A DNA stretch of 64,000 nt, taken from an uncultured Candidatus Saccharibacteria bacterium (GTDB lineage Bacteria > Patescibacteriota > Minisyncoccia > Phycocordibacterales > UBA918). The translations under genes were made by a program, and so were the position numbers. The DNA is taken from contig CAZSOS010000002.1 of NCBI GenBank assembly GCA_964608605.1, positions 105,569 to 169,568 on the forward strand. The letters run 5' to 3'. The notes beneath the pieces were generated by a model. The model saw only the letters and a program-made list of their open reading frames with translations, ran no database searches and was not told where the DNA came from. Position 1 is the stretch's first letter. Each line of letters begins with the position of its first letter. This document shows, one piece after another, positions 21,930 through 49,213 of this stretch.

Positions 21930-21986
21930 CCGTTCATTATAACCTCCCCACGACCCGACCGCCTGTGGGAACAGTGGGCTATGTGA

Positions 21987-22020
21987 TAAAAAACCGAAGC
22001 GGCGACCGCTTCGGTTTTTT
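21987..22020. terminator. Hairpin terminator
   Basis: AAAAAACCGAAGCGG-CGA-CCGCTTCGGTTTTTT. Confidence 0.6.
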
Positions 22021-22369
22021 ATTTTATCTTCGTTCCCGCCGGTAACGACACGGACGGATACAAGAGCGCGAATGCTTCCTCGGTGCTGGCCGCCAAGATC
22101 ATGCCTTGGCTTTCGATACCACGGATGACGCGCGGCTCCAGATTGGTCAAGAACGGACATTGCCTTCCCACCAATACCTGCGGATCCTCGAAGTAGGTTC
22201 GGATGCCGGAGACGATCTGCCGCGGCCGACTCTCCCCTGTCTCGTCCTTTTCGCCGACGTCCACGGATAGACGGAGCAGCTTATCGGCGCCTTCGACTAT
22301 CTCCACCGACAGGATGGTACCTATCTTGATCTCCAGCTTGGCGAATTCGTCGTAACTGATATTGGTCAT
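22019..22369 (-). CDS. tRNA-binding domain protein (CsaA/Trbp111/MetG C-terminal-like)
   Basis: FAKLEIKIGTILSVEIVEGADKLLRLSVDVGE is the OB-fold tRNA-binding signature. Confidence 0.8.
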   Translation of the reverse strand: MTNISYDEFAKLEIKIGTILSVEIVEGADKLLRLSVDVGEKDETGESRPRQIVSGIRTYFEDPQVLVGRQCPFLTNLEPRVIRGIESQGMILAASTEEAFALLYPSVSLPAGTKIK

Positions 22370-28238: not shown

Positions 28239-28314
28239 TTGTAATCATTATCACCCATGGACAGCGCGCGATGAAGCCCGCGCTGTGGTTAACTCGGCTC
28301 GATCGTCGAGTGGA

Positions 28315-29883
28315 TCAGATCTCGTAGCGCGATAGTTTCCAACGGCCGCCTTCCCCTACCACTTCCCCGGTCTGAATGGAACCGTCCGCGCCGTATAACT
28401 TGCCCTCGCTTCGATTCCCGGCAGAAATGATGGAGGTCTGGTTCCAGATCGCCTGGACCCGGAGCATAGTGTCCAACTGATACCACATCAATCGCGGATC
28501 TTGGAATCTGGCGTGCGACAGCGGATGCAGCACGAAAGAGCTCGCGCTCATTTTCCTGGCGCCCATGACGCCGACGCCGGAGACGCTTTCATAGCAGAAC
28601 AAAGTGCCGGGCAGCCACGAGGCGTCATTGGTCAAGGTCTTGGCCGGACCCGGAACATAATTATAGATAGACCTCGAGGTCGCCAGCGTCTCGTCAAAAC
28701 CCAGGATATCGAGGGCGGCGCCGAAGAAGTAGGACACGTATTCCCCTTGCGGCACCAAGAACTGCTTGTCGACGGCATAGACATGTTTGTTCCGGATATC
28801 GTAATAAAAAGAACGCAGCACCGATCTGGTCGGCGTAAGGGAGATACGGGAGGTATCGACTATAACCGTATCGGAATCGGGATGCTCGGTCTCCAGGTAT
28901 TCCTGGAGGCGCGACACGTCCCCGAAAGCGAACGTGTATCTGGAATCTTCCGGCAACAGCACTAGATCGGGACCCAGCTCCAGGGCCGACTCCACGGCCA
29001 TGATCAGATCCCGATCCTTGGCCGCCTGGCCTTCCCGGTCACGGAGGCTGGAGATGGTGAAATCGGTGTCGACGGCGATGACGCGCTGGCCATCTAGAGT
29101 AGGTGGCGTCGGTACATATATAAGGTTCAAGATGAGAAGGACAGCTCCATAACCCAGCAGAGCGGGATTAGAGAGAACGCGCTCATGCAGACGCAGATAG
29201 ATCAGGCTGCCCAATAGCGCAGCGGCGGCAGTTAGACCGTAAAGACCGGCGAGCGCAGAGACCGGATCGAAGAGCGTGAACCTTCCGAAAGCCAATCCGA
29301 CGTAGCCATAGGTAACGTACGCATTGAGGTACGAACCCGGTCCCAGCACGAACAACGACAACGCGAGCGAACCGGCCAATTCCCCGATCAGCCAGGCTAG
29401 CGGAAATAATACCATCAAGATGAGCAGGGTCGCGCTTCGCTGCATCAGGTATCTTGCCGACAGGGCCGGCACTATCAGACCGGCCCCCAGCGACAAAGAG
29501 CAGGTGAACCAGAAAACGCCGATCATGAGGAGTTGGGCTAGGGCGCTCTCGACACCCATCCAGTTCATTGGGTACGAATACCAGAGCCAGAGCAGAGCGC
29601 CAGACGACTTCATCCAACCCACCAACAGCCCGAGTCCGGCGGCCGAAACAAAACTCTTCGATCGCTGGACCCCGATCAGGAACAACACTAGCCCCGGCAA
29701 TACCATGACACCGAGATAAGGAAAAGTAATGAGCGATAGACAGGCACCGCTCGCCACGAAGGCGACGACGGGGGAATTAAATGACCGTCCCTTTAACAGC
29801 TTCTTTGAAAGTGAGAGCGCGGTGCGGCTGAAGTTTGTTAAGGTCATGATGAGCGCGAAGCATGAAGCGATTTGACTAGCCAA
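28315..29883 (-). CDS. lnt: Apolipoprotein N-acyltransferase-like (multi-TM plus CN-hydrolase domain)
   Basis: Seven or eight N-terminal TM helices. The CN-hydrolase region has LVLLPEDS (Glu), DKQFLVPQGEYVS (Lys; compare E. coli HKRHLVPFGEYVP) and TLFCYES (Cys) motifs. Confidence 0.8.
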   Translation of the reverse strand: MASQIASCFALIMTLTNFSRTALSLSKKLLKGRSFNSPVVAFVASGACLSLITFPYLGVMVLPGLVLFLIGVQRSKSFVSAAGLGLLVGWMKSSGALLWLWYSYPMNWMGVESALAQLLMIGVFWFTCSLSLGAGLIVPALSARYLMQRSATLLILMVLFPLAWLIGELAGSLALSLFVLGPGSYLNAYVTYGYVGLAFGRFTLFDPVSALAGLYGLTAAAALLGSLIYLRLHERVLSNPALLGYGAVLLILNLIYVPTPPTLDGQRVIAVDTDFTISSLRDREGQAAKDRDLIMAVESALELGPDLVLLPEDSRYTFAFGDVSRLQEYLETEHPDSDTVIVDTSRISLTPTRSVLRSFYYDIRNKHVYAVDKQFLVPQGEYVSYFFGAALDILGFDETLATSRSIYNYVPGPAKTLTNDASWLPGTLFCYESVSGVGVMGARKMSASSFVLHPLSHARFQDPRLMWYQLDTMLRVQAIWNQTSIISAGNRSEGKLYGADGSIQTGEVVGEGGRWKLSRYEI

Positions 29884-29920
29884 ACCAGCAAAGCGCCGTC
29901 AGTGACGGCGCTTTGCTGGT
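29884..29920. terminator. Hairpin terminator
   Basis: ACCAGCAAAGCGCCGTCA-GTGA-CGGCGCTTTGCTGGT. Confidence 0.6.
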
Positions 29921-29927
29921 TCACTCT

Positions 29928-31009
29928 TTAGGTCTCCTGGATGTCCGGCAGCACCCGGATGAGCATGCTACTGACGTTATTGCCGTCCTCGCAGTCGAGC
30001 GTGATCACCGTTTCGCCGATGGCCGTGAAGTTAGTGGTACCGGAATCCCGACTGAACGGACCAGCGATGACCACGTTACCAGCGCGAAGCACGCAGTTGG
30101 CGGGATCGCTGGTACCGACGTTCCAATCTATCGGCACCTCGGTCCCCTTCCGCACGATCACCGAAGGCGGTACCGTACTGCCTCCGCCACCATCGCAGCT
30201 GGTATTGGAGACGCACGCGTCCTTGCCGTACTCGACATCCACCTCAGTGTAAGCGGAAGCCACTGACTTCACCGCGTCCGGCAGGCCAGCGCAATCTATC
30301 CAGAACCTAGTCTTCTCCGATAGCGGCCCCGTAGGGTGACCAGAGGAATTATTCCGCGCTTTATTCCCACTCCAATTGATCGGTGACGCTAATTGACGGG
30401 CCGTACAGGTAGTCGTATTGGTAGAGTCCCAAGTTAGGCTTGAGGCTTCTGAATATTTCACCTTAGGTGGATTTGCCCAAATACTGACCGTAGGATTAGG
30501 TGGCGGAGGTGGGGGCGGAGGAGGTGGGGGCGGAGGAGGTGGAGCGCAACTTGGAGCCGTGAAAGTAGTCATCAGCTGGTCATGTTCCGGCCAAGACAAG
30601 GTCCAGTGCTGCACCTCTATGGTGTAGGTCTGATTATGCGGAACGACCACGGTGGTGGGACCTCCATACCTATTTATGCCAGTAACGATGCCGGCCTGAT
30701 GCACGATCAGGTTCAGCCAAGGTTCATACGTGGCCACGAAACCGGACATACTGATACTTAAGACGACGCGATCACTATCATAGCAATACGCGGACACGGA
30801 AGTGCGCGGCGGTTCAGCCACCGTGTAACAGTTAGCGGCGTTATATTCGCAAGGATGAGTATCGCCACTAAACGATGAAGCTGGTGACGTCGCGGTGTGG
30901 GCCGACGCGATATCGGCCGTCCACAGAACCATCGCCATGGTCAGCAAGAACACGCACCCCGCCGCGCGCGCTCCCCTTCCTTGATCCGTCATGTTTGAAA
31001 TAAACCGCA
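29928..31009 (-). CDS. Secreted protein with a P15 polyproline linker and the conserved C-terminal domain ending VLPDIQET
   Basis: Signal peptide (start chosen at MRFISN, 31009). An (APPPPPPPPPPPPPPPNP) tract is encoded by a GGNGG repeat. The C-terminal 75 aa are homologous to the 26715..28238 protein. Confidence 0.7.
30488..30535. repeat. GGNGGN simple-sequence tract encoding the polyproline linker
   Basis: ggtggcggaggtgggggcggaggaggtgggggcggaggaggtggag, read on the minus strand as CCN codons. Confidence 0.7.
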
Positions 31010-31152
31010 TGATATTTTTTAAGTGATAGGACTTTAGCCTAATACTAATGCATGAGGGCGGAAGTTCGGACCTCAAGCTGTGAATAATATCTTCAATTGT
31101 CCACAACCGAGAGGATTGTGCATAAATGAGCCCGCCCGTATAGTTTCTAATA

Positions 31153-32340
31153 ATGACAGTCAATAAAATACTCATATCAATAGCGTCGGTGATCGCGCTC
31201 ATTTTAATAGCGGCGGGAGCTTTCTGGTTCTGGCTTAATTACGCGCCAGCGCAGAACGCGCCGGAAACCGGAGACTCCCTGGAACACAACACCGAGCCCA
31301 TAACCATGGTCCCCGAACCGCTCACCGGCAATAGTCCGATATCTGACCTGGCCGACTTCGTCGCCGGCGCCATGGACGCCGAGGGCAAGTTCTTGCTGAG
31401 TTATCGTTGCGAAGCCCAGAACTGCGAACCAGTACCCTCCACCGAGGCCACGGCCTTCGGTTATTCCCTGCTGGGACTTATCGCCGGCGCTGACGCTGGT
31501 AACGACATAGAGCTGCGCCGCCAGGCCGACCTAGCTATCACCCGCGCGCTTAGGTTGTGCGGACAGGATGCCAACTCCTGCTTGTCGAACTTCTTCGCCC
31601 TCGAAGAATACTACGAACGCACCAACGCCAGTTCTTATAAGCAGGCGCTGGAAAAGGCCGGTCAACTGCTACTTACCACCAACGCCAGCCGCCTGGACGC
31701 CGTGGTGGGAGCCTTGATGTTCTACCCTTACAAAAAAATGGAGAGTCTCTACAAGATCACGGATGACGAAAGCTATCTGGAACTTCTGACTGTCGCCGCC
31801 GATACGGCTCTGAACAACTGGCCAGACCGGATCGAAGGCACCGCTATCTATGAGACTGCCGCCGGTCAGAAAGTGAATTACAACCATCTGCTGATAGCCA
31901 GCACCTTATTCATCCCCGCTTACAGAGCCACGAATGATGAGAAATATCTGCGCGCCGCGGCCGATCTCTTCAAGCGATCGGAGTTGGAGCAACATGCCTT
32001 GGGCCTGCGCTCCGAAAGAGGCGTCACGCTGCTTCTTAACAGCATCGAGGGTCTCTTGGATCTCTCCAAGATCGAGACCTTAAGCCAAGCCGACAGGGAC
32101 GCCTTCAGATCCTCGGCCGCGCTGATCATGAAGGACCTGTTCGGCTGGCAGTACGATGCTGCCGATCGCGCCATTGGCGATGGCACCGGTGGCCTCTTGA
32201 CTGGGGTGTCCGACGCTACCGAACCGGCCGGAGTGAACTACAAGAACATCAACCTCAACGGCTGGTTCGCCTATCTGCTCGCGGACCCTTCCATGGCCGA
32301 TATCGACCTGGTCATCTACAAAGCGCCGACCGGGTTCTAA
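31153..32340 (+). CDS. Membrane-anchored protein, paralog 1 (helical-repeat, possibly (alpha/alpha)-barrel-like)
   Basis: N-terminal TM segment. Shares LSYxCxxxxxxCxP, CxxDxxxCxxNFFxLxxYY and recurring D-x-[KS]-YL motifs with the 33070..34146 protein. Confidence 0.55.
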   Translation: MTVNKILISIASVIALILIAAGAFWFWLNYAPAQNAPETGDSLEHNTEPITMVPEPLTGNSPISDLADFVAGAMDAEGKFLLSYRCEAQNCEPVPSTEATAFGYSLLGLIAGADAGNDIELRRQADLAITRALRLCGQDANSCLSNFFALEEYYERTNASSYKQALEKAGQLLLTTNASRLDAVVGALMFYPYKKMESLYKITDDESYLELLTVAADTALNNWPDRIEGTAIYETAAGQKVNYNHLLIASTLFIPAYRATNDEKYLRAAADLFKRSELEQHALGLRSERGVTLLLNSIEGLLDLSKIETLSQADRDAFRSSAALIMKDLFGWQYDAADRAIGDGTGGLLTGVSDATEPAGVNYKNINLNGWFAYLLADPSMADIDLVIYKAPTGF

Positions 32341-33069: not shown

Positions 33070-34146
33070 ATGAAAAAAATTCTCTTCCTTATCCTTATCA
33101 TCGTCGTGCTGGCAACGGCCGGAATTGTCATCGCCTGGCAACAGCGTAAAGTCGTGGACGATGCTGTTACGGCCGCGCCCGCGACCGCCGGCGAGCTGGC
33201 CGCGAAGACCATCAAATTCATCGATGCCGCGCTTGATCCCGCGACGGAACGATACGATCTATCCTATACATGCAGCGAAGTGCAGAAGACCTGTAAGCCG
33301 CGCCACAACCCGGACATTCCACCGCACATGGGTTACGCCATCATCAGCCTGAGAGAGGTCGGACTAGCGACCGGCGATACCAGATTGGTCGAAAAATCGA
33401 AGACCATCCTGCACGATGCCATAAATAAGTGCGCCGACGATCCGCGCTACTGCGAATGGAATTTCTTCCCCCTCCATCATTACTACAAGGCCACCGGCGA
33501 CCAGAAATATCTCGACGCCATGCTGGCGGTCTCCGGGAACGTTACCGCGCCCAGGCCGGTCAGGGATCTCATCAAGGCCAACATACCAGTGAAATGGTGG
33601 CGGCTTTATGACGCCACCGGCGACGAGAAGTACCTCAAGCAGCTCACTGATCTGGCCGACGAACAGCTGCGGGTGTTCCCAGCCGAGAGACTTAACGATG
33701 ACCTGGTCTATCGCGACGGCCAGACCGACGTGCGTTCATACGACCTGCCGATGATCTGGGCGGTGTACATGCCGGCCTGGTTCGCCAGCCGGGACGAGAA
33801 ATACCTCGCGCCGGCGCGGGAATTCTTCGACGCCACCGACCTGGCCGCCAATACTTCCCTTTTCTTCGATGTCACCGCGACCGGAAACCTGCTGAAGGGA
33901 GTGGAGTCTCTCTTGAACGCCGCCGAGGCCATCCCCGAGCGCCGGGAGGCATATCGGAAAGAAGCGTTGGACATATTGCGCGTAGTCCTCCAAGAACGCC
34001 TGGACACGCCGGATCGAACCCTGGTAAACGGCGACCATGGCCTGTTGGTATCCCCCCATGAAAAGGAGACCAATATCCAAGGCTGGCTGACCTATACCCT
34101 GCTGGAGCTAGGCGACGAACCCTTGAAGCTGGAGGGCCTCTGGTGA
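33070..34146 (+). CDS. Membrane-anchored protein, paralog 2 (helical-repeat)
   Basis: Paralog of the 31153..32340 protein. Motifs GDQKYLDAM, GDEKYLKQL and RDEKYLAPA recur every 50-60 aa. Confidence 0.55.
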   Translation: MKKILFLILIIVVLATAGIVIAWQQRKVVDDAVTAAPATAGELAAKTIKFIDAALDPATERYDLSYTCSEVQKTCKPRHNPDIPPHMGYAIISLREVGLATGDTRLVEKSKTILHDAINKCADDPRYCEWNFFPLHHYYKATGDQKYLDAMLAVSGNVTAPRPVRDLIKANIPVKWWRLYDATGDEKYLKQLTDLADEQLRVFPAERLNDDLVYRDGQTDVRSYDLPMIWAVYMPAWFASRDEKYLAPAREFFDATDLAANTSLFFDVTATGNLLKGVESLLNAAEAIPERREAYRKEALDILRVVLQERLDTPDRTLVNGDHGLLVSPHEKETNIQGWLTYTLLELGDEPLKLEGLW

Positions 34147-34183: not shown

Positions 34184-35461
34184 ATGATCCTGTCCAGACT
34201 AAAATCATTGATACCCAGACCGCTTCTGGACGTCGCGCGGCCTCCATATCATTTCCTACTAGCCGCCATGGGCAGCATCGTCTACCGTCGCCCTTCTCGG
34301 GAACTCTTCGTGATCGCGGTCACCGGCACCAAGGGGAAATCGACCACGGTCGAGTTGTTGTCGGCCATCCTCGAAGGATCGGGAAAGAAGGTGGCCAGTC
34401 TGTCGACCATCCGCTTCAAGATACAGGATGACATCCGCCCCAACCTCTACAAGATGACCACGCCGGGGCGCTTCTTCACGCAACGCTTTCTGCGCCAAGC
34501 CGCCGATGCCGGCTCTGACTACGCCGTCATCGAGATGACCTCCGAGGCCGCCAAGCAATACCGGCACAAATTCCTGGAACTCGACGCCCTAGTGTTCACC
34601 AACCTTTCGCCGGAACACATCGAATCGCACGGCTCGTTCGAACGATACAAGAAGGCCAAGCTCGAGATCGCCAAACAACTGGAACGTTCCCTGAAGCGCC
34701 CGCGTTACGTCGTCGCAAACGCCGACGACGACCATGGGAATGATTTTCTATCCATCAACGTCGAACGGCGTCTCCCCTATTCGCTGTCGGATCTCGAACT
34801 GTACAATCTGCACAAGGACGGCTGCGCGCTAGTGATCAAAGAAGGCAGCGAGGAGATCACCCTCCGACTGTCCCTGGTCGGCCTTTTCAATGTCTATAAC
34901 GCGCTCGCGGCCATCACTCTGGCGCGCGCGCTCGGCGTCCGCTGGAAGGATATCGAAAGATCGCTCGGCCAGCTCGACAAGGTAGCCGGCCGCGTCGAGC
35001 ATTTCTCGAGCCCCAAGGACAGTCCGAAGAAACTGACCGCGGTCGTCGACTACGCTCATACTCCCGACTCGCTGGAGAAGTTCTACTTAGCCTTCAAGGA
35101 CGTCCGGAAGGTCTGTATCCTGGGAAATACTGGCGGCGGCCGCGACAAATGGAAGCGGCCGGAAATGGCCTCGATCGCCGAACGGCATTGCGACCAGATA
35201 ATCCTGACCAATGAAGACCCCTACGACGAGGATCCGAGACAGATCGTCGAGGAAATGGCCGCCGGCATCGAAGACCAGGAAAAGCTCGACATCATCATGG
35301 ACCGCCGCGAGGCGATAAGGCACGCTTTCTCCATTGCCAACGACGGCGATTACGTGCTTATATCCGGCAAAGGCACCGACCCATACATCATGGGCCCGAA
35401 CGGATCCAAAGAGCCGTGGAGCGACGCCAGGGTGGTAGAGGAAGAACTGACCAAGCTCTGA
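34184..35461 (+). CDS. Mur ligase family protein, MurE-like
   Basis: P-loop VTGTKGKSTT and the DYAHTPDSLEKF motif (MurE DYAHTPDAL). At 425 aa it is shorter than the typical MurE. Confidence 0.75.
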   Translation: MILSRLKSLIPRPLLDVARPPYHFLLAAMGSIVYRRPSRELFVIAVTGTKGKSTTVELLSAILEGSGKKVASLSTIRFKIQDDIRPNLYKMTTPGRFFTQRFLRQAADAGSDYAVIEMTSEAAKQYRHKFLELDALVFTNLSPEHIESHGSFERYKKAKLEIAKQLERSLKRPRYVVANADDDHGNDFLSINVERRLPYSLSDLELYNLHKDGCALVIKEGSEEITLRLSLVGLFNVYNALAAITLARALGVRWKDIERSLGQLDKVAGRVEHFSSPKDSPKKLTAVVDYAHTPDSLEKFYLAFKDVRKVCILGNTGGGRDKWKRPEMASIAERHCDQIILTNEDPYDEDPRQIVEEMAAGIEDQEKLDIIMDRREAIRHAFSIANDGDYVLISGKGTDPYIMGPNGSKEPWSDARVVEEELTKL

Positions 35462-35639
35462 CTCTGAAGTAAGGAGATCATGCGACAAAGAGGCCGGGGC
35501 GCTTAGCGCCTCGGCCTCTTTGCCGCATACCTATTCCGTCTAGTCAGACTAGACGGAATGATGCTGTGAATAAATCTGTGCATAAGACAAGGACAACCTG
35601 TGAACTTGCCGTACAATGGCTACATATACATATTAATAT

Positions 35640-37802
35640 ATGCCAATTAACACCCCTTACGCCCGCGCCGCCAAAAATTTATTGCCTTTGTTATTGATAA
35701 CCTCCCTCCTGTCGCCATCACTGCTTCCGGCTAGGATCCTAGCCGCGTCTAGTATCGACAACGGCTCCGAAAGTGCCGGAGCTAAAGGCAGCAGTCCGAG
35801 CGACAGCGGTAGCTATAGCGGCAGCGACTCAGGGACCACCGGGTTCGAGGGCTCACCTGAGGTAGGCCCCACAGCGGCGGCTCAGACATCAAACGACGCG
35901 GTGGCGACCGAAGTGGCTGCCACCGCCGGCCCCGGCATCAGCGTGACGCCGGTCGACGCCAGTTCTCCGCACGCTCCAGCGCCGGGAAGTAGCGTCAATG
36001 TCAACGGCGTACAAATGGGCGTGGAGGACGCGCGCGGGGCCTTGGACGCCATAAGCAAGTCCAATGGAGTAGCCGACGTCCAGGCGACCCTAGCCGCTTG
36101 GGCCGACCCTAAAGGCACCATCGAAGCGGGACAGGTCGTCGGACCGTATGGGCACGTCGGCCTCCCGGAGGCAGTGGCTCGAGAAACCGCCACGGTGCAG
36201 GCCGGAATAAACGCTATCTCCTTTGCCAACTCACTACCTACCGGAGTATTGGATCCAGGTCGGCTTGGTTACGACCCGAACAGCTGGAGCAACATCCAGT
36301 CACGACTGGAAGTGATCAACGTGGTCAGTGCTCCGGTGAGCAGGACTCAGACCGGACAGATCGAATACGCTAACGTAGTGGGAGTCGGCAAGGACGCTCA
36401 GGATAAAACTCAGACAAGTCCAGAGTATGAAACCAGGGTCCATACCAACGCGGACGTAGCCGCCAGAATGGCCGCGGCCGGTTTCAATCCTGACGGCTCT
36501 TTGCAAAGAGCGGTAACCATAGATTACGGGAATATAATGGGCGTCACCAAAGGAACCGTCAAAGATTATCAAGCCAATGGCACTCTCGACAGCAAGATCG
36601 CCATGGAGCAGAACATGATCGGCATGGCTCTCAACTCCAGCATAGATAAAGCCCAACTAGGACAAGTCGACCCTAACAGCATAGAGAATCACGGCAAGGT
36701 CGATAACCGAGACACCAATGGTGCTTTCGCTAAATCCCTAGACGACACGATCACCCCTGGTTTATGGGTGGACAGCAACCTCACCGGTAAGCAGGAACTG
36801 GCCATGAGTTATTACGCCAATATAGTCGGATATACTGCGAATCAAGCTGCCGGTATCATAGGTAATTTTAAAGCGGAGAGTAACCTGGACCATCTGGAAG
36901 AAGCGGCTGGCCGGGAGCGTTCCAGTGGCCTGGCTCAATGGAACGCTGCCGCGGCTGCCGGCGAACGCAGACAAGCACTGGAGGATTACGCTGGAGTGAA
37001 ATTTTCCGAGCAACTCGTTAACGGCAGACACACCTCAGGTCCGGGGGCTTTCACGCAACTAGCGTTCACCGTGGCTGAAATGGAAGGAAGATTGACGGGA
37101 CATAAAGACCCTCAGTCAGAAGCTGTGGGCCGCAGTTTCAACGCGAATCCGAATATGACGGCCGCTCAAGCTGCTGAAGAATTCCAAAATGGCTTTGAAC
37201 GGCCAGCTGACCGCTCTCACTCTATTGCCGCCAGACAGAACGGGGCAAGCGAAGCATTGACCGCGTACAACAACCTGGACCCAGGTCGGGAAAACTTCAC
37301 TACCGGTAGCGTATCCGGGCAGCCAGGACAAACCGGTGGTCAGGGCGGCAAGACCGGCAGTGACCAACCCTCGAGGCAAAGCGGGGGTTTTGGTCAGGTG
37401 GAATTCGGAGTCGGTGGATTTCGTGTTACCGTCGACACTGACAAGATCGCCGACCTATTTAGCAATATGTTCTCCGGGTCGGGAGGAGATGGAGGAGCAC
37501 CGGAATACACCGATCTGTCATTCACCGGTAGCGATGATACCGGAAATTCCCTGGAGCTGGAACGGGTCGATATCACCCCGGGCAGGCCCGGCATCTGCCC
37601 CGCCGGACCGGCCGAAGAAGGATTTTCATTCAACATAAAATTCCTCAACAAAGAACACACTGATCAGGTCTACAGCTGTAAGGGTCAGACCACGGCGGAC
37701 AACTTCAATATAGTCACGGCTTATCTCAAGAATTACGAAACCGATAACGTGCAAGATGTCGACGTACTGAGCAAGATGCGGGTCACTTCGGCCAAGTATT
37801 GA
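35640..37802 (+). CDS. Giant secreted protein (720 aa) with a lysozyme-like (phage-tail-lysozyme-type) peptidoglycan hydrolase domain
   Basis: The leader is MPINTPYARAAKNLLPLLLITSLLSPSLLPARILAASS. The internal domain has GIIGNFKAESNLD...GLAQWN..R...L, as in the phage tail lysozyme family. The C-terminus has a YSCKGQTT module. Confidence 0.65.
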   Translation: MPINTPYARAAKNLLPLLLITSLLSPSLLPARILAASSIDNGSESAGAKGSSPSDSGSYSGSDSGTTGFEGSPEVGPTAAAQTSNDAVATEVAATAGPGISVTPVDASSPHAPAPGSSVNVNGVQMGVEDARGALDAISKSNGVADVQATLAAWADPKGTIEAGQVVGPYGHVGLPEAVARETATVQAGINAISFANSLPTGVLDPGRLGYDPNSWSNIQSRLEVINVVSAPVSRTQTGQIEYANVVGVGKDAQDKTQTSPEYETRVHTNADVAARMAAAGFNPDGSLQRAVTIDYGNIMGVTKGTVKDYQANGTLDSKIAMEQNMIGMALNSSIDKAQLGQVDPNSIENHGKVDNRDTNGAFAKSLDDTITPGLWVDSNLTGKQELAMSYYANIVGYTANQAAGIIGNFKAESNLDHLEEAAGRERSSGLAQWNAAAAAGERRQALEDYAGVKFSEQLVNGRHTSGPGAFTQLAFTVAEMEGRLTGHKDPQSEAVGRSFNANPNMTAAQAAEEFQNGFERPADRSHSIAARQNGASEALTAYNNLDPGRENFTTGSVSGQPGQTGGQGGKTGSDQPSRQSGGFGQVEFGVGGFRVTVDTDKIADLFSNMFSGSGGDGGAPEYTDLSFTGSDDTGNSLELERVDITPGRPGICPAGPAEEGFSFNIKFLNKEHTDQVYSCKGQTTADNFNIVTAYLKNYETDNVQDVDVLSKMRVTSAKY

Positions 37803-37862
37803 CAATAATCTCTTATTATGTATAATAAAACCAGTTCTATGTTCCCTGAAAGGAGACATATC

Positions 37863-38444
37863 ATGTACGCGACGATAACCGCGGCCGCCACTTTCCTGGT
37901 CATGTTGCTGGTCACCTCGATCGCAATATCGCCGGCCCCGGCCCAGGAAACCGCAAGCATCTACACCAACATCCCGCCGATGTACGAGGTGAATTGGGGT
38001 AGCGACGAGCCGCTGTCCCCGGAAGCTGACCACGCTCTCCACACCTTTTACGTCTGCGAGTACTCTCCGCGCGGCCAAGCCGCCCTGAAGGAACTGCGCG
38101 ACGCCATCGGCAAGATGTCGTTCGATGACGATTCGAACCGCATCCAACGAGCGGATGATCTGTACGGTCTGGCCAAGCAGCATGAGCGTGAGGGAGTATG
38201 CCGATGGAGCGACCATCAGCAAGAATATTTCCTTTACGGTTATTACCACAGCACGGACGAGTACGACCTCTCCGAAGTACCGTGCACTTCGCTTCCGAAC
38301 GGCATCTGCGCCTACATCCAACCGATGAAGAACGCCCTTAAAGAGGACGAGATGGAGATGGTCTACTCCCTCTTCACCGACACGGATGACGACATCGTCC
38401 GCCAAGAGATCTTCGGCGGCGAACAGTGGGCACTGATCAACTAG
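37863..38444 (+). CDS. Small secreted Cys-containing protein immediately downstream of the 720-aa protein
   Basis: AAAGGAGA sits 8 nt upstream of the ATG at 37863. Signal peptide MYATITAAATFLVMLLVTSIAISPAPAQE. Followed by a hairpin terminator at 38467-38493. Confidence 0.55.
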   Translation: MYATITAAATFLVMLLVTSIAISPAPAQETASIYTNIPPMYEVNWGSDEPLSPEADHALHTFYVCEYSPRGQAALKELRDAIGKMSFDDDSNRIQRADDLYGLAKQHEREGVCRWSDHQQEYFLYGYYHSTDEYDLSEVPCTSLPNGICAYIQPMKNALKEDEMEMVYSLFTDTDDDIVRQEIFGGEQWALIN

Positions 38445-38589
38445 CCCGCCGCGGACCCTGGACCATAAAAGACCCCTACCTTAGGGGTCTTTTCTTATCT
38501 CCCGTTCATCGATAGCCATTCTTGTCTCTATCGCGTATGTGTATAAGGAGCGGGTATTTCCAGAGCCTCAGCATACAATATGTACATAT

Positions 38590-41500
38590 ATGTTAATCAC
38601 AACCATGGCACCCCGCTTTTTATCCGTATTATTAATAATCTCCCTCCTCTCTCCCTCACTCCTACCGTCAGTGGTGTTCGCCCAAAGTAGCGGCGATAAG
38701 CAAGAAGCTGGCGATGAGGGTGAAGACTCCGCCGCGGCAGCAGAAGCGGCGGCGGAAGCTGCCGCCCAAACGGTGAATGAAATGGCCAGTCTGGCGGCCG
38801 GACTGGAAGGGCGTTCCTTTACTGCTTCGTCAGTAGGAGGAGCCAATTTCGATGCCAACAATCCTTCCGTCAACATAACCGCCGACACTGGTGAGACCTT
38901 CACCATGACCACCGATCAGGCAGTAGCGGCGGCGGGAGCGATCGGCGACGCGCAAGCCGCTGGTATCAGTACCTCCAACAACTCCAATTCCCCGGGAGTG
39001 GACGTGGCCGCCACTCTGGAGGCACATTCCCAGGGCGAGACGGGCGTGGTCGTGGGATCCATGTCCGGTGAAATAGGGACCCCCGCCGCGGTGGCTCAGG
39101 CGGAGATAGCGGCGGCCAGCCGGCAAAGCTCGGTCAGCGCCCTAAGCGACGCGGCTTTTGATTCAAGGTTCGCGGGTGCGGCTGCTATTCAAGGGAGTGA
39201 TCTCAACCAGGCATTGGCCGCAGCCTATGGGCAGCTAGCCAATAGCGCCAAGCAAGCTGGTATCTTAACCCTGGGCGGCACTACCCAAGTAGGACCGACC
39301 GGCAACGTAAATGCTCAGTACACCATGAACCAGGCCCTGGTTGCCTCATACCAACAATACGCGAACGTACTAGGTCAGTCTGGTAACCTCGGTCTTTCAG
39401 GCACCACCAACACTTCCTACTCTTACGATAGGTCGACCGGGTCATGGGTCGGCGACCAAAACGGACGAACGTATACGACTCAAGAAGTGGTCGGCGGCAA
39501 CAAAGACTTCAGAGACGCGGCCGCGGAATTCGAAAGGACCAACAACAGGTCATACGTCGATTTCTTCGAAGAAGCTCTGGAAAAGGACTCTGGACGTTTC
39601 CAAGTCTCTTTAGACTTTAGGACGAATCAAATAATCGCGACAGATATTGTTACGGGCCAGATAACCGGCACTAATCTGACGACCGGCACGACCGAGAATC
39701 TGGGCGGAATTTTCCAATCATACGACTCCACTACCGGGACAAATCTGGGATACACTCCACCAGCTGGTACTTCCCTGGCTTTCACCGCTACTGGTCTTGG
39801 CAATTATCAAGTGATCAACGCCAAAGCCGAGCCTCCCAAAGAATCCTTTGTGGGTGCCTATGACACTAAACTTTCCAACTCTGCGGCTAGATCTATGCTA
39901 GATGGTAACGTTACGGTAAAAGACGGAGTAAGCTTCGAGGGAGCACGCGCCAGCACCGTAGCCACAGCTAACCAACTAGCTAAAGATTGTAACTGTGTAG
40001 TACCCATAACTTCCGTGACCGATGGAAAGCATGCCGGCGGTAAAAACTCTCATGGAAATGGTGCCAAATTCGATGTCAGTGACTGGCGATCTCTTGAGTT
40101 CACCTCGTACGTAACCGGCGGAAAAAATGGTTGGACTCAAACCGGCACGCGTGGTGGTGGCCACGGAGGACCGATATACACCAACCCTGATTTCCCTGAG
40201 GTTAATATAGTATACGAGAAAAGTTACCATCACTTTGATATACAAGTCGTCGGAGACGTCGGTAAGGCTGGTCTTGAGATCACTTATGCAACTGGTTCAA
40301 TATTCGAAGGATCACTTCACGCGGACCTGCCCCCAGGGGAGTCATTGAGCACTAACTTTTCAAACATACCCGGAGGAGATGAAACTTCACCCGGATCTCA
40401 AGGCGGATCAAACCCTACCCAACCTGGCAACGTATCACCCGACAGTGGTAAAAGCCTGCCCGATATCATGGCTGATGGAATGGACAGGGTCGGTATCGAT
40501 CCCAACAGCGGGATCGGAAGAGGCGTGCTGGGTTTGGCCGCGGCGGCCGACAATCTGCTCGGCCGGTTCGGTATAGATTTTAATGACCTGATGAGCGGCG
40601 GCGGAGCGGGTCCAGGAAATGAAACGGATGCCCAGGGTGCTGACGCTATGACCTGCCCCTACCCCCTTTCCTGCGACGATAACGACCTGGGAGCGTCGGT
40701 CATCACCGCCATCGCTCCAAACTTAGATGTCGTAAGTTGGGTACTTCGAATTTGGAACCTGGTATCAAACAGCGAAGACAAGGAAGTATCGGTGCCAGCA
40801 GGATATGCCCCCACGCCTGATGCCGTACTGGTAGAGATCGTGACCCATCTGTCTGACAACGCCATTGAAGTACATCGTCCCGACATCGAAGCCACCTTGG
40901 CCAATCCTCGTCTTTACTACACCGAAAAACAATACGAGCAACTCGTCGCTTTACTGAGCGAAGAACCGATACTTACCGACCAAGAAGGTTCCATCATCTA
41001 CTCGAACGGCCTCTATTCCCCGCCGGTCGTTGACGGCCGATACGTGGAGGGTTCTCCTAAGTACGTTTACGTGCTCAAGCAGATCGATGAGAGTGGTAAC
41101 GAATTGCCTGCCACCGATGACAGCGAACCCGGAGGGTTGCTAAACCGGGTGTTGAAGCAGGTATTTGGTGACACTTCCCCGTTTAAAACGGACTCGATCG
41201 AGACCGTATCCTACCGCTTGATCGATCCGGACATGGATACTCCAGCAGATGAATACTATGACTACCTCTTTACCTTGAAGGATGGCAGCGAAAGAGCGGT
41301 GGCGGTGCCGCAATTCTCCTCAGTGGCTCATATGGCGAATAAATTCCGCGACATCGGCTACCAAGGAACGCCTCTGGATATATTGATCATGGCCACGGAG
41401 ACAAACTTGCCTCCAGAAAGAGGTTTGATCGGCAAGATATCGGACTGGATCGGCTCTTTGGTCGGACGCTTCATGCCGAGTTTGACCGAAAACCAAACAA

Positions 41501-42264
41501 CGACCACTTTGCCAGAAACAAAGCGAGGATATTCCGCTGACAACATAGCCAGTGTTTTCATCTACCCTAATGCCGCCGTAGACTGTCCAAACATCGAAGG
41601 ATACCAAAATGGTTACATGTACACTGCCACCATTAACGACCCCGATCGTCCCGGATATATGACCCTGGTCACGGAAGGAAGGTGCGGAAGCGGCGGCGAA
41701 GAGGACTTCTTGGCGGACGCGCTGCAACAGCTGGAGAGCCGCTGGGGATTGGCCGGAACCATAGCCGACTCGACCATGAATAAGGTCAGATTCCGATTTG
41801 AAGAAACTCCATATAAACCAGGTTTGGCCATCGCGTATGTAGGCACCGATGTTCCTTCTGGATCCACGGACCCCGAACCAGCGACTCCAGACCCTGAACC
41901 TGCGGCCACGTCCACCACCCAACTCCCCAACCTCACCAACACCATCACCTTTGAAGTGAAGGCGGTGGGAAGCGAAGGAAAAGTGCTGGCCGACTGGACT
42001 CAAGCGGAGCGGATAACCGTGGCTCCAGGAGTACAGCTATACTTCCGCTGGAATGGGACCGATTACCAGCAGTGTCTTCCCTTCCTCAACGACAACGGCA
42101 ACTACGCGTTGACGGTGCGGAACCGAGCCATGACCACGGGCAACACCGAGAGCGAGGGATACAATATCAACGAAAGGAGTGGCGTGTACCGCCTTGAATG
42201 TGGCGGACAGAGAAACAATGAATTCGGGGTGGATGCTAGGGAGATCGAAGTAGAGGTGAGATAG
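38590..42264 (+). CDS. Giant secreted protein (about 1220 aa) with a putative M15/LAS-type metallopeptidase (VanY/endolysin-like) domain
   Basis: Leader MLITTMAPRFLSVLLIISLLSPSLLPSVVFAQSS is paralogous to that of the 720-aa protein. There is an Ala/Gly/Thr-rich N-terminal third. KHAGGKNSHGNGAKFDVS and YEKSYHHFDIQ resemble the H-x-D / WHF zinc motifs of M15 peptidases. The C-terminal module is YRLECGGQ. The start is ambiguous: 38539 GTG, 38590 or 38605 ATG. Confidence 0.6.
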   Translation: MLITTMAPRFLSVLLIISLLSPSLLPSVVFAQSSGDKQEAGDEGEDSAAAAEAAAEAAAQTVNEMASLAAGLEGRSFTASSVGGANFDANNPSVNITADTGETFTMTTDQAVAAAGAIGDAQAAGISTSNNSNSPGVDVAATLEAHSQGETGVVVGSMSGEIGTPAAVAQAEIAAASRQSSVSALSDAAFDSRFAGAAAIQGSDLNQALAAAYGQLANSAKQAGILTLGGTTQVGPTGNVNAQYTMNQALVASYQQYANVLGQSGNLGLSGTTNTSYSYDRSTGSWVGDQNGRTYTTQEVVGGNKDFRDAAAEFERTNNRSYVDFFEEALEKDSGRFQVSLDFRTNQIIATDIVTGQITGTNLTTGTTENLGGIFQSYDSTTGTNLGYTPPAGTSLAFTATGLGNYQVINAKAEPPKESFVGAYDTKLSNSAARSMLDGNVTVKDGVSFEGARASTVATANQLAKDCNCVVPITSVTDGKHAGGKNSHGNGAKFDVSDWRSLEFTSYVTGGKNGWTQTGTRGGGHGGPIYTNPDFPEVNIVYEKSYHHFDIQVVGDVGKAGLEITYATGSIFEGSLHADLPPGESLSTNFSNIPGGDETSPGSQGGSNPTQPGNVSPDSGKSLPDIMADGMDRVGIDPNSGIGRGVLGLAAAADNLLGRFGIDFNDLMSGGGAGPGNETDAQGADAMTCPYPLSCDDNDLGASVITAIAPNLDVVSWVLRIWNLVSNSEDKEVSVPAGYAPTPDAVLVEIVTHLSDNAIEVHRPDIEATLANPRLYYTEKQYEQLVALLSEEPILTDQEGSIIYSNGLYSPPVVDGRYVEGSPKYVYVLKQIDESGNELPATDDSEPGGLLNRVLKQVFGDTSPFKTDSIETVSYRLIDPDMDTPADEYYDYLFTLKDGSERAVAVPQFSSVAHMANKFRDIGYQGTPLDILIMATETNLPPERGLIGKISDWIGSLVGRFMPSLTENQTTTTLPETKRGYSADNIASVFIYPNAAVDCPNIEGYQNGYMYTATINDPDRPGYMTLVTEGRCGSGGEEDFLADALQQLESRWGLAGTIADSTMNKVRFRFEETPYKPGLAIAYVGTDVPSGSTDPEPATPDPEPAATSTTQLPNLTNTITFEVKAVGSEGKVLADWTQAERITVAPGVQLYFRWNGTDYQQCLPFLNDNGNYALTVRNRAMTTGNTESEGYNINERSGVYRLECGGQRNNEFGVDAREIEVEVR

Positions 42265-42275
42265 TTATAATCAAG

Positions 42276-42303
42276 AAACCCCGCCATGGAAATGGCGGGG
42301 TTT
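42276..42303. terminator. Bidirectional hairpin terminator between convergent genes
   Basis: AAACCCCGCCAT-GGAA-ATGGCGGGGTTT. Confidence 0.6.
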
Positions 42304-42318
42304 ATGCGTGCTGCTTCG

Positions 42319-42978
42319 TCAAAATTTTTTAAGCCGTGGAGGCAGAGCCGAGAGGATATTTTCCGGCATGTTGGATCCGGTGCCGGTCGGAGACAGCGGT
42401 CCGAGCGGCGTTTTCGATATCAGCCTGGAAAGAGCGCCGTTATCTGCGACCTTCTGTCCCGGCCACGGCTTCTCGGCCAAGAGCCGAAAATATCCATTAT
42501 CCAGAACCAGGAAGAACGTGGCGTTATCGTAATAACAGTCATATTCCTCCAGGGCCGGTACCTCGGCATTCATGATGAGCAGAGCGGAATCAGCTCTATA
42601 TGAATAACCCGTAACCGAATCCGGAAAAGTTCCCAGGAACTCACCGGTCTTGACATCGAAAAGCAGGTCCCACCTTACGTCGCACTGAAACGACAGTACG
42701 ACATAGTGGCCGCCAAAGCGGTAAGGGTACCTGGTTTCCCGGGCGGTTTCCCGGTAGGTCCGAAAGGCCGCGTTGCGGTTAGCCTCGAGTAGATCGCTGG
42801 CCTGGCCGCATTCTTCCGGCAGGATCTCGTCATCCCACTTTAGCGAAGCGATCGGCCCTTGATAGACCTCCTCCGGAAACTGGTTGAATTTAGGCCAGCT
42901 TTCGGTAGCCGAGACAGCATTGACGAAGAGCATCGCCGCGAAGGTGAACGCGGCCAGAACAATGCGGAGGAACTTCAT
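42319..42978 (-). CDS. Secreted hypothetical protein
   Basis: Signal peptide MKFLRIVLAAFTFAAMLFVNAVSATE. Convergent with the giant protein gene. Confidence 0.55.
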   Translation of the reverse strand: MKFLRIVLAAFTFAAMLFVNAVSATESWPKFNQFPEEVYQGPIASLKWDDEILPEECGQASDLLEANRNAAFRTYRETARETRYPYRFGGHYVVLSFQCDVRWDLLFDVKTGEFLGTFPDSVTGYSYRADSALLIMNAEVPALEEYDCYYDNATFFLVLDNGYFRLLAEKPWPGQKVADNGALSRLISKTPLGPLSPTGTGSNMPENILSALPPRLKKF

Positions 42979-43905: not shown

Positions 43906-44604
43906 TCAGATCCGGAGCGCCCAGCGCTCGAGAGACACCAAGAGATCCTGCCGACCCAGGCGGCTTTCATGTATCAGTGACAACAATGATCTAGACAATA
44001 CCTCCAGCTCTCCGGGCTTGAATTTCACCAATGCTCCCTTGGCTTTTCTGTAAGGAAAATCCTTGAGTCCGACCGCGGCGGCTGGCTGGCCGGTGGCGGC
44101 CAGCCGCAGAGTCTTAAGCTGCCACCACCAGATGCCGGCGATCTCCTCCGGACTCATGCCGGAAAGGAGCGCTTCGTTCCACAAGAGCCAGAGAAGTTTC
44201 TTGTCCCTTCTTGAGGGCGCGTCGGGCATGGAGAAACCGTTGAGACGCTGCGCCGCCGCGGCCTTATGTTCCTCGCTATGGTCGGTATGCTTGGTGAGTC
44301 TCTTCTTGGCATCGGCCAGCAGTGTGCCTTCGATGACCACGAATACCTGATCCGAGTCCCGCAGCGCCGCCGCCTCGTCGATGACCGCTTCCAAAAACTT
44401 CTGGTCGGAGGATGGCGTGTCGAGAATGTACGCGGTCCGGCCGCCGAAGAGCGGGACGCTGCCGGAAAGAGACGTCAGCAAACCATCCTCGTATCCCGAA
44501 CCTTCGATCATGGTCGGCAAACCGCCCCCCACTGACCGCTCCGCGAAATCAAGCGCGGCGCGGCGCACTTTCACCGTGTCGTTGCCGTAAAAGACCGCTA
44601 ACAT
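43906..44604 (-). CDS. holA: DNA polymerase III delta subunit-like
   Basis: The MLAVFYGNDTVKV...start resembles the HolA N-terminus. It lies immediately downstream of polA. The call is weak and rests mostly on position. Confidence 0.5.
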   Translation of the reverse strand: MLAVFYGNDTVKVRRAALDFAERSVGGGLPTMIEGSGYEDGLLTSLSGSVPLFGGRTAYILDTPSSDQKFLEAVIDEAAALRDSDQVFVVIEGTLLADAKKRLTKHTDHSEEHKAAAAQRLNGFSMPDAPSRRDKKLLWLLWNEALLSGMSPEEIAGIWWWQLKTLRLAATGQPAAAVGLKDFPYRKAKGALVKFKPGELEVLSRSLLSLIHESRLGRQDLLVSLERWALRI

Positions 44605-47533: not shown

Positions 47534-49213
47534 GTGCCCAAATTCGACGAACACATACTCGAAAGCAAACGCTATCAGGAATTCCGCCGCGGCGAGGAGG
47601 AGAATCTGATCCGCGCCCTCTCCAAACAGCACGGCTATACCTACGTGAATCTCCGCGGCATCAGCATCAACCCGGAGGCCCTGATCCTGATACCAGAATC
47701 GACGGCCCGCGAAGCGGGCATGGTGGCCTTCGAGAAGCAGAACAAGAAGGTATCGATCGCCATCAGGAACCCCAACGACCCCCAGGCCAAGGCCGTCATG
47801 GACGACCTCGGCCGTTCCTTCGAGCTTTCCGTTTACATGTGCTCCATCATGAGCCTCGAGCATGCCTGGGAAAGATACAAGGACCAGCGCGGCACCGCCG
47901 CGGTGAAGAAAGGCATCCTCGACATCGACACCGAGGAGATCGAAAAACTCACCCGCTCCGTCCAGTCGGTCGACCAAGTAAGGGCCAAGGTCGAGGAGAT
48001 CAAGACCCTGAACGCCGCCCGCAAGGTCAGCGCCACTCTGGAGGTATTATTCGCCGGAGCTCTCTCACTAGGAGCCTCCGACATCCATATCGAGCCCGAA
48101 CCCGCCTCCGTCCGGGTACGGTTCCGCCTCGACGGCGTGCTGCACGACGTGGTCTCGATAGAGCGCGCCACCTATGAGCGTCTCATCTCCCGCATCAAGC
48201 TCCTGGCCGGCCTGGTGCTGAACCGTCGCAGCGAGGCGCAAGACGGGCGATTCACCTTCGAAAGCGGCGAAAGGCGCGTCGAGGTGCGTACCTCGATCAT
48301 CCCCGGCTCGGCCGGCGAAAGCGCGGTCATGCGTCTCCTTGACCCGACCGTCGCCAGCTTCAACATGGACAGCCTCGGCCTCAACCCGATAATGCAGGCG
48401 GTGATGCTGGAAGAACTGAAGCGCCCTAACGGCATGATCATCACCACCGGCCCCACCGGCTCCGGTAAGACCACCGCCCTCTACGCCTTTCTGCGCGCCG
48501 TGCATAATCCGGAAGTGAAGGTGATCACCATCGAAGACCCGGTCGAGTACAAGGTCGAGGGCATCGTGCAGACGCAGGTGGAAGAAGGCTACACTTTCGC
48601 CTCGGGCCTCCGCTCCATCCTGCGCCAAGACCCGGACATCATCATGGTCGGCGAGATCCGCGATCGCGAAGTGGCTGAGACGGCGGTGCACGCCGCCGAG
48701 ACCGGCCACCTGGTCTTCTCGACGCTTCACACCAACAACGCGCCGGGAGCCTTCCCTCGTCTTATCGACCTCGGCGTCGACGCGCGTCTCATCGGCTCTT
48801 CGACCAACATCGTGCTGGGACAGCGCCTGGTGCGCCGACTCTGCGAAGCCTGCAAGCGCGAGCGCCCGGCCACCGCCGAAGAAAGGGCCAAGATCGCTCG
48901 GGTCATGGCCGGACACCCGAAACCGCCCGCTCTGCCCGCGGACCTCAAGATCTTCGACGCTCCCGGCTGCGCCGAATGCGCCGGTACCGGCTTCAAGGGA
49001 CGACAAGGAGTGTTCGAGGCGGTCAAGGTGGACCAAGCGGTCGAAGAGGCCGTCATCCGCGATCCGCGCGAACACGTCATCCTGGCGGCCGCCAAGCCCC
49101 AAGGCATCCCCACCATGGCCGAGGATGGCATGGAGAAGGTGCTCCAGGGCATCACCTCTTTGGCGGAACTCGAGCGCGTGGTCGACCTGACCGCTTTGCG
49201 CCCGCTGGCCTAG
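47534..49213 (+). CDS. pilB: Type IV pilus assembly ATPase PilB/GspE family
   Basis: GPTGSGKTT Walker A, Asp/His boxes and a tetracysteine motif (CEACKRE...CAECAGTG). GTG start. Confidence 0.9.
   Translation: MPKFDEHILESKRYQEFRRGEEENLIRALSKQHGYTYVNLRGISINPEALILIPESTAREAGMVAFEKQNKKVSIAIRNPNDPQAKAVMDDLGRSFELSVYMCSIMSLEHAWERYKDQRGTAAVKKGILDIDTEEIEKLTRSVQSVDQVRAKVEEIKTLNAARKVSATLEVLFAGALSLGASDIHIEPEPASVRVRFRLDGVLHDVVSIERATYERLISRIKLLAGLVLNRRSEAQDGRFTFESGERRVEVRTSIIPGSAGESAVMRLLDPTVASFNMDSLGLNPIMQAVMLEELKRPNGMIITTGPTGSGKTTALYAFLRAVHNPEVKVITIEDPVEYKVEGIVQTQVEEGYTFASGLRSILRQDPDIIMVGEIRDREVAETAVHAAETGHLVFSTLHTNNAPGAFPRLIDLGVDARLIGSSTNIVLGQRLVRRLCEACKRERPATAEERAKIARVMAGHPKPPALPADLKIFDAPGCAECAGTGFKGRQGVFEAVKVDQAVEEAVIRDPREHVILAAAKPQGIPTMAEDGMEKVLQGITSLAELERVVDLTALRPLA

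Follow-up and report, generated by a model that had tools for sequence, protein, structure and literature searches.

Few candidate enzymes have been named for the breaching of a host's wall by ultra-small epibiotic bacteria, and we know of no account of how it is done. The question is raised by a locus in a 64-kb stretch of DNA (the window; positions are counted from its first letter) from an uncultured Candidatus Saccharibacteria bacterium, in which two large genes, here called A and B, are predicted to encode exported peptidoglycan hydrolases that share the beginning of their sequence. Cultivated Saccharibacteria are epibionts, and the locus offers two concrete, co-regulated candidates for wall opening, a putative glycan cutter and a putative peptide cutter. 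Judging from sequence, we consider it likely that A and B form a pair of exported peptidoglycan hydrolases. For the full reading, which includes a preference for the host wall, we set the probability at 0.6 at most.

Gene A (35640-37802; 720 amino acids, aa) is followed by a small gene, C (37863-38444; 193 aa), and then by gene B, which is publicly annotated at 38605-42264 (1219 aa; protein P0001) and spans 38590-42264 (1224 aa) when read from the ATG that is kept in orthologues. All features described here lie on the plus strand unless stated otherwise. A fourth gene, D (42319-42978, minus strand), is convergent with B and encodes a secreted protein of 219 aa. A model that read the letters of this DNA without database searches (the sequence-only reading) had described A and B as giant paralogous wall hydrolases, and both open reading frames (ORFs) are present as it had described them. 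Related loci and proteins are designated below by L and P numbers.

Gene A encodes a predicted lysozyme of the phage-tail type

The product of gene A is made up, in order, of a Sec-type signal, a Ser/Gly-rich linker, an N-domain, a conserved middle region, a lysozyme domain, a Gly-rich linker and a C-terminal domain with two Cys. A hidden Markov model (HMM) search recovered the lysozyme-like domain that the sequence-only reading had expected: aa 388-542 (36801-37265) match Phage_lysozyme2 (PF18013), a muramidase-type family, with 57.1 bits against a cut-off of 28.2 bits (E=2.9e-15), and the match takes in positions 6-139 of the 140-position profile. The PF18013 match is also found in three orthologues of A, and E413-S414 in the motif GNFKAES are invariant across the four orthologues. 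Among PHROGs, this domain matches a phage tape-measure family over its lysozyme part (7.7e-8), and the profile of the A family found nothing among PDB sequences. These comparisons support the assignment of A to PF18013 as a candidate lysozyme of the CwlT/phage-tail type, which would cut the glycan strand. The small C-terminal domain (about aa 640-720; 37557-37799) has two conserved Cys, C653 and C680.

The centre of B carries an unannotated LAS-like domain

The product of gene B consists of a signal, an acidic/Ala linker, an N-domain, a Thr/Gly/Asn-rich region, a LAS-like domain, a Gly/Ser/Pro linker and a C-region of about 535 aa. The whole protein gives no usable match in Pfam, NCBIfam or PHROGs, and its isolated central domain (P0001 aa 411-581; 39835-40347) has no match in Pfam even at E<=10 and none among PDB sequences. 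Searching 1.84 billion representatives exhaustively with HMMER, we found 106 proteins related to this domain at E<=1e-3, the best non-self match having an E-value of 8.6e-14. In an alignment of 47 relatives (A6), H73, G76, K78, D80, H133 and D135 are invariant, and C52, C54, T59, T62, H66, G69, R106 and a Glu located 2-5 residues before H133 are near-invariant. In B this Glu is E128 in A6 numbering (E538 in P0001), which MAFFT shifts by two columns. The family signature, SHxxGxKxD (H-x6-D) followed by E-x(n)-H-W/F-D, corresponds in B to H483, D490, E538, H543 and D545; H476, K488 and R516 are conserved as well. At the motif level, a zinc triad of the form H-x(3-6)-D...H with a catalytic acid is thus present across the 47 sequences, with H483 (40051-40053), D490 (40072-40074) and H543 (40231-40233) as putative zinc ligands in B. 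We take the pattern formed by H483, D490, E538, H543 and D545 to match the zinc/catalytic signature of VanX and Sonic hedgehog.

Modelled by AlphaFold from the 47-sequence alignment, the domain reached a predicted local distance difference test score (pLDDT) of 82.2 and a predicted template modelling score of 0.77; AlphaFold2 with an alignment of two sequences had given a pLDDT of 38.5. The model has the Hedgehog/DD-peptidase alpha/beta fold. We also compared the domain by hhalign with the bona fide M15_3 domain of P0004, and the match is weak (E=0.054), with ITS...SHxxGxKxD aligned in register over ITSGFR...QHMSGNAVD. The M15 models are matched by none of 103 relatives of the B domain, and the 47-sequence profile finds nothing among PDB sequences. 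Neither HMM nor profile-to-sequence searches connect the B domain with any of the LAS zinc peptidases (VanX, VanY and Ply500 of M15, MepA of M74, VldE and ShhN). Its family has two additional invariant residues, K488 and D545, together with a conserved pair of Cys (C-x-C). The sequence-only reading had proposed an M15/LAS zinc peptidase here. Its motif residues, picked beforehand, are conserved in the 47 sequences and the modelled fold agrees with it, whereas HMM and Foldseek matches did not bear it out. The domain is most likely a peptidase like those of M15/LAS in fold and motif; because it fails the sequence-profile test of membership, we class it outside M15, as a new family with the same fold.

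The distribution of the domain in other proteins points in the same direction. In 69 of the 103 relatives (among P0010-P0114), the LAS-like domain is C-terminal to a type IV secretion system (T4SS) pilin domain, the VirB2-like T4SS_pilin of Pfam (PF18895). It is fused to Phage_lysozyme2 in P0019, accompanied by SLT-like ends in P0025, P0041 and P0060, and embedded in polyvalent proteins of 2600-3600 aa in P0093 and P0113 (giant phage or conjugative). None of the relatives P0010-P0114 matches any peptidase model, and no T4SS genes were seen around P0010 and P0019, which lie on short contigs. The fusions to Phage_lysozyme2, SLT and T4SS pilins would place the domain in extracytoplasmic, wall-associated contexts. 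B resembles the pilin fusions in being predicted to act outside the cytoplasm and in belonging to a domain type that is specific to, or enriched in, this lineage; it differs in lacking a pilin domain, its copy of the LAS-like domain being located in a giant Sec-exported protein. According to PMC12102498, Patescibacterial T4SS mostly lack VirB1. If T4SS pilins in this group do carry a wall-cutting domain, this could explain the rarity.

A and B share a 5′ cassette

The signal peptides of A (35640-35747; aa 1-36, ending in LLITSLLSPSLLPARILA before Ala) and B (38590-38682; MLITTMAPRFLSVLLIISLLSPSLLPSVVFA before Gln) were read by inspection. Their leaders contain an identical nine-residue block, SLLSPSLLP, and agree at 16 of 27 positions of the ungapped core, above the line of 30% identity that had been set beforehand for the claim of a shared leader. 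Scanning all six frames of the window recovered the block in the leaders of A and B only. The leader DNA is identical at 32 of 39 nucleotides (nt; pairwise blastn, E=4e-6), and within the block five of nine codons differ, every difference being synonymous, which argues that the leader peptide itself is conserved and is not merely recently copied DNA. The leader had also been called atypical. By eye, however, both leaders show a basic n-region, then a hydrophobic core containing a helix-breaking Pro, and finally an ordinary end (VFA before Gln in B, ILA before Ala in A), and we regard them, by inspection, as standard Sec signals.

Beyond the leader, the relationship between the two proteins is restricted to the N-terminus. 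BLASTP shows no significant alignment of A with B. An hhalign comparison of the A-family and B-family profiles (A1 and A2, four sequences each) gives a probability of 99.9 and E=2.7e-31, confined to the first ~230 positions, a stretch that comprises the signal, a low-complexity linker and an N-domain of about 100 aa. Past these ~230 residues nothing else aligns in the profile-profile comparison, the C-terminal Cys modules included. Paralogy of the whole proteins is therefore excluded: the description as giant paralogues holds for the N-terminal third and fails for the remainder, and the C-terminal Cys-containing beta module that the two were said to share finds no counterpart in detectable similarity between their C-termini. 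The N-domain lies at about aa 105-200 in A (35952-36239) and at about aa 86-215 of P0001 in B (38860-39249), and is common to A and all family members. Its local profile match has an E-value of 1.5e-31 and its motif reads PGVDV.ATL.AH..G..G.VVG..SGE.G.P..VA; searched against PDB sequences, the N-domain profile found no relative.

The likeness extends into the DNA upstream. A composite element, TGTGYATAA-N18-34-TACAAT-N2-8-AYATATA, occurs exactly twice in the window (35577-35628 and 38538-38590; none expected in shuffles), both times directly before A or B. The element also stands upstream of orthologues in L003 and L007, whose sequences served to define it, and it precedes a distant family member in L002 that had no part in its definition. 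In front of A, the block consists of a TGTGCATAA box, 27 nt, a -10-like TACAAT (35612-35617) and ACATATA; in front of B, of a TGTGTATAA box, 27 nt and TACAAT (38574-38579). Neither promoter has a good -35, the arrangement before A being AGGACA-16-TACAAT. The ATG of A is located 22 nt past the -10 and the conserved ATG of B just 10 nt past TACAAT, both with no Shine-Dalgarno sequence; this closeness of the start codon and the missing Shine-Dalgarno suggest that the mRNAs are leaderless or near-leaderless, that of B probably leaderless. The similar upstream DNA that the sequence-only reading had noticed is thus real, and the common promoter composite together with the homologous N-terminal ~230 residues supports its proposal of co-regulation and of duplication at the 5′ end. 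In all, A and B would be separately transcribed, co-regulated genes with a common 5′ cassette (a TGTGYATAA promoter, a short or absent 5′ untranslated region, a signal peptide, a linker and the ~100-aa N-domain) fused to different wall-cutting modules.

Two further observations concern this block. The TGTGCATAA box is found three times in the window against 0.24 expected, its third copy (31117-31125) being located 27 nt before an ORF at 31153-32340 for a membrane-anchored or secreted protein of 395 aa; this ORF is paralogous to that at 33070-34146 (27% identity, E=1e-27), which has weak GH127/GH88-like matches. Exported proteins preceded by a box of the TGTGYATAA type may form a small regulon. 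The public call of the A orthologue in L007 (P0006) begins 51 nt early and translates the promoter block (L007:2623-2673), the conserved ATG being at L007:2674.

Where two family genes occur in one genome, their 5′ ends are closer to each other than to those of their orthologues. The two giants of L005 are 100% identical over the first 660 coding nt and 99.1% identical over 703 bp that include 18 bp upstream (L005:5414-6116 and L005:11055-11757), compared with 70-73% identity to the L002 orthologues. The 5′ ends of the L002 pair are 83% identical (84% over 615 bp; L002:9984-10585 and about 15545-16130), and those of the A-type and B-type genes of L001 reach 68% versus 54-59% across genomes. 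In the window, identity between A and B over 660 nt is at background level (56%), while orthologues of A and of B are 73% and 80% identical. This pattern resembles homogenisation of the kind produced by gene conversion. In the lineage of the window, the 5′ likeness would have decayed to the promoter block and leader, the weak end of an effect that is strong in its relatives.

B belongs to a family of giants with a replaceable catalytic slot

Close homologues of A and of B each form four clusters among 5.8 billion sequences. The nearest loci in species-representative genomes belong to metagenome-assembled genomes (MAGs) of Saccharibacteria, 'Nomurabacteria' and Patescibacteria, and the family survey is small, a metagenome scan with the C-region adding just three new loci. 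The order Mur ligase, [A-type, C-type], B-type, convergent small secreted gene, SpoU, 232-aa ORF and PolA recurs wholly or partly in L001, L003/L007, L002, L004, L005 and L014. Specifically, a Mur-ligase gene is upstream of the giant in the six loci that cover this flank (the window, L001, L002, L004, L005 and L014), with intervening genes in L011, and SpoU, the 232-aa ORF and PolA are downstream in the window, L003, L004 and L014. L006 covers the downstream part of the locus only, with the 3′ part of the giant.

All B-type giants have in common the N-domain and the ~535-aa C-region (P0001 aa 684-1219; 40654-42261), which is the most conserved part of the family, with 36-45% identity across loci. 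Its terminal module of about 110 aa (41926-42261) has a weak DUF3876 match over the last ~60 residues, and searching PDB with the C-region profile detected no relative. What differs is the module between these flanks. In the central slot, the window and L003 have an LAS-like module, P0003 has Hydrolase_2/SleB, P0004 has Peptidase_M15_3, and the first of the two L005 genes has Peptidase_M23. In L004, L006, L014 and the second L002 gene, it is occupied by a divergent M15_3-like module of about 180 aa (L004:11531-12104, L006:3002-3529, L014:8660-9238, L002:19504-20046) with the motif SxHxxGxAxD, classical for M15 (e.g. TGSSRHDHGNAAD), and a final IHVGG. Pfam recognises nothing in this module at a threshold of E<=10, but hhalign places it in register with an M15_3 domain (E=0.0017) and gives no link between it and the B-domain family (E=0.11). 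These comparisons of sequence show that B belongs to a lineage-specific family of giants with a replaceable catalytic slot between conserved flanks. Since Pfam-recognised wall hydrolases occupy the same slot, they lend independent support to the prediction that the B domain cuts peptidoglycan.

The small neighbours C and D

Gene C encodes a protein with a signal or anchor segment and four conserved Cys. A C-type gene follows the A-type gene in all four loci, with 54-71% identity in L001, L007 and L008 and the four Cys conserved. The strong ribosome binding site noted by the sequence-only reading is present (AAGGAG, 37852-37857), and the gene also has its own promoter (37799-37826), a sigma-70 consensus TTGACA-16-TATAAT with 12 of 12 matching positions that overlaps the stop codon of A. 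A near-consensus promoter is found at the equivalent place before the C-type gene in all three other lineages (L007, L001, L008). Because C has a perfect sigma-70 promoter and a ribosome binding site of its own, A/B and C are probably under different control. A terminator-like hairpin at 38471-38496 (GACCCCTA-cct-TAGGGGTC, then a T run) ends the A-C unit and separates C from B; in an alignment, a hairpin is visible at the equivalent place in L003. A second, GC-rich hairpin of 12 bp between the convergent B and D (42276-42303) is likely a bidirectional terminator.

Neither C nor D has a match in Pfam, NCBIfam or PHROGs, nor do they match a known inhibitor or immunity family. D is a frequent, not constant, neighbour of B-type genes, and at least three unrelated protein families occupy its slot. 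D1, to which the D of the window belongs, stands beside LAS-like, M15_3, M23 and P0003-like modules, while the divergent M15_3-like module is paired with D2 in L006 and with D3 in L004 and L014. A D2 protein is found after the second L005 giant as well, and the D-slot protein of L001 is weakly similar to D2. Across nine loci, we found no co-variation of the D-slot family with the catalytic type, and co-variation therefore gives no support for D as a cognate immunity protein. For C, which the sequence-only reading had suggested as a possible immunity or chaperone partner of A, co-variation is uninformative, as the A-type domain is identical in kind in all four loci.

Which wall is cut

In the mechanism that we favour, A and B are Sec-exported peptidoglycan hydrolases of a Patescibacteria (Candidate Phyla Radiation) chromosome. 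A would cut the glycan strand with its CwlT/phage-tail-type lysozyme, and B would most likely cut the peptide part by means of a zinc-dependent, M15-like site of the LAS type (H483-x6-D490, H543, E538). The shared N-domain may hold both exported enzymes at the same surface site, so that together they would open peptidoglycan at glycan and peptide bonds. The favoured target is the wall of the host (basibiont) at the attachment site, which is the least secure step; the C-region of B would serve as a binding or delivery part, and the differences between modules would follow host wall chemistry. As between the host's wall and the cell's own, our judgement tilts slightly toward the host, because bond specificity changes between related genomes, because the giants carry a large conserved non-catalytic region, because classical self-wall-binding repeats were not found with Pfam, and because the 5′ ends behave like contingency or surface-protein families. 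A peptidase and a lysozyme homologue near virB4 have been reported as essential for epibiotic growth of Southlakia epibionticum (PMC12102498, citing Wang et al. 2023). Glycan and peptide cutting are likewise combined in CwlT, PrgK and phage tail lysins.

Several points weigh against this reading. The hydrolase activity of A and B is a prediction, and the convergence of H483, D490 and H543 on one metal site is putative. Foldseek searches of the B-domain model against PDB and BFVD returned nothing significant, the top PDB match being MepA at E=1.5, and no HMM links the domain to the M15, M23 or M74 models or to PDB sequences. The N-domain and C-region have no known relatives, and the anchoring and delivery roles given to them are consequently guesses. 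The data do not tell host wall from own wall, and the epibiotic lifestyle is taken solely from the names of related MAGs. Finally, the locus is located among housekeeping and wall-synthesis genes (Mur ligase, PBP1), and a housekeeping autolysin fits equally or almost as well.

Such autolysins would remodel the cell's own wall during growth, daughter release, budding or passage of a type IV pilus or T4SS, and their modules would differ since any wall-opening activity suffices. We regard this as possible, though on balance unlikely. The fixed core-genome position beside the Mur ligase and near PBP1, PilB and PilM speaks for it, as do the single copy of each type per genome, with no further paralogue detected in the window by the N-domain profile, and the failure of the D-slot protein to co-vary with catalytic type. 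Modular exchange is common among ordinary Gram-positive autolysins, which also counts in its favour, and the fusion of B-domain relatives to T4SS pilins suggests a role in passage of a machine or pilus. However, orthologous housekeeping hydrolases usually keep their bond specificity, whereas here LAS-like, M15_3, M23 and SleB-type modules share one slot, and a conserved non-catalytic C-region of ~535 aa in a giant protein is unusual for division hydrolases. Pfam found no LysM, SH3b or PG_binding repeat in A or B, and no VirB4-like or VirB4-sized T4SS gene is present among the ORFs of at least 500 aa in the window, which shows no T4SS cluster. If only the own wall is the target, the locus would represent a lineage-specific autolysin family, useful for annotation and unsurprising.

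The differing central modules on conserved flanks in related genomes, the homogenised 5′ ends reminiscent of gene conversion, the small secreted Cys proteins that adjoin each enzyme gene and the independent consensus promoter of C, as immunity genes often have, together recall a polymorphic toxin-immunity system, in which the N-terminal cassette would serve trafficking, the variable module would be the toxin, and C and D would be cognate immunity proteins. We consider this improbable: the variable module is central and not C-terminal, no orphan cassette array is seen in any locus, D is convergent and not co-directional, its families do not track catalytic type, and neither C nor D has a match among known families of immunity proteins or lysozyme inhibitors. 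A C-terminal variable toxin with a co-varying downstream immunity gene was not found. Least credible of all is a prophage or conjugative-element remnant, whose tail-associated or VirB1/CwlT-type lysins would have stayed behind in the chromosome. The lysozymes of PF18013 are of the phage-tail/CwlT type, the A domain matches a tape-measure PHROG, and the B domain occurs in giant phage/conjugative polyvalent proteins and with T4SS pilins, but no phage or conjugation genes surround the locus, whose neighbours are RuvA, Mur ligase, SpoU methylase, PolA, PilB and RuvB. The same neighbourhood is kept in divergent MAGs, GC content is barely below that of the flanks, and B, C and D lack PHROG matches. 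Gene context and synteny led us to reject the prophage reading.

The host-wall reading can be drawn out further, into a picture that we hold to be rather doubtful: a wall-breaching kit of an epibiotic Patescibacterium, in which the cassette is kept alike by gene conversion or selection, modules are swapped with host wall chemistry, the C-region docks the host, C protects the own wall, and the pilin-LAS fusions form T4SS pili with a wall-cutting tip that would account for the scarcity of VirB1.

Relation to known systems

No such locus is described in the full-text literature that we searched. Modular secreted wall hydrolases are known; what appears to be new is an unannotated catalytic family and an unusual evolution of 5′ ends. 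CwlT of ICEBs1, PrgK of pCF10, TcpG and the S. epibionticum pair likewise combine a PF18013-type muramidase with a peptide-cutting module, are exported and act on a monoderm-type wall. They differ from A and B, in which the two predicted activities are on separate giants with a shared 5′ cassette, the peptidase of B is LAS-like and not NlpC/P60 or CHAP, a C-region of ~535 aa is added, and no T4SS gene is nearby. Phage tape-measure and tail-tip lysins, which breach a foreign wall from outside, resemble A and B as large multidomain wall hydrolases and in lysozyme type (the PHROG match), whereas A and B are located at a chromosomal core locus with Sec signals and no virion genes. Polymorphic toxins (Zhang et al. 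2012, PMC3482391) likewise keep an N-terminal trafficking part while their enzymatic cassettes differ, are accompanied by small secreted proteins and recombine at conserved flanks, but in the present locus the cassette is internal, orphan cassettes are absent and the neighbours do not co-vary. The locus provides several leads: a zinc-peptidase-like family, most members of which are fusions with T4SS pilins from the same phylum, a cis-element that possibly defines a regulon, and module differences together with 5′ homogenisation in a reduced genome.

Genomic surroundings

Upstream, the locus is flanked by RuvA and a Mur-ligase-family gene (34184-35461). Downstream are a SpoU methylase, the 232-aa ORF (43906-44604), which has no Pfam match, PolA, a PilB-type ATPase, RuvB and a class A penicillin-binding protein (PBP). 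The GC content of the locus is slightly below that of these flanks. The ORFs of at least 500 aa in the window are RNR, two without a Pfam match, A, B, PolA, PilB and PBP1.

On the minus strand, dnaN and dnaA are located at 56596-59438, and the cumulative GC skew has its minimum near 60-62 kb; from these positions, the hydrolase locus would lie ~16-23 kb from the probable origin. Given an origin there, A, C and B would be transcribed head-on to replication. Pfam gives no match at E<=1e-5 for three consecutive large ORFs (507, 522 and 424 aa) that occupy 26715-31202 on the minus strand. The window also contains type IV pilus genes, encoding a PilM-like protein and a PilB/T2SSE ATPase with an MshEN domain (20835-22160 and 47534-49213), and an ORF of 554-559 aa stands at the position syntenic to PilB in L004, L006 and L014, a correspondence of position only.

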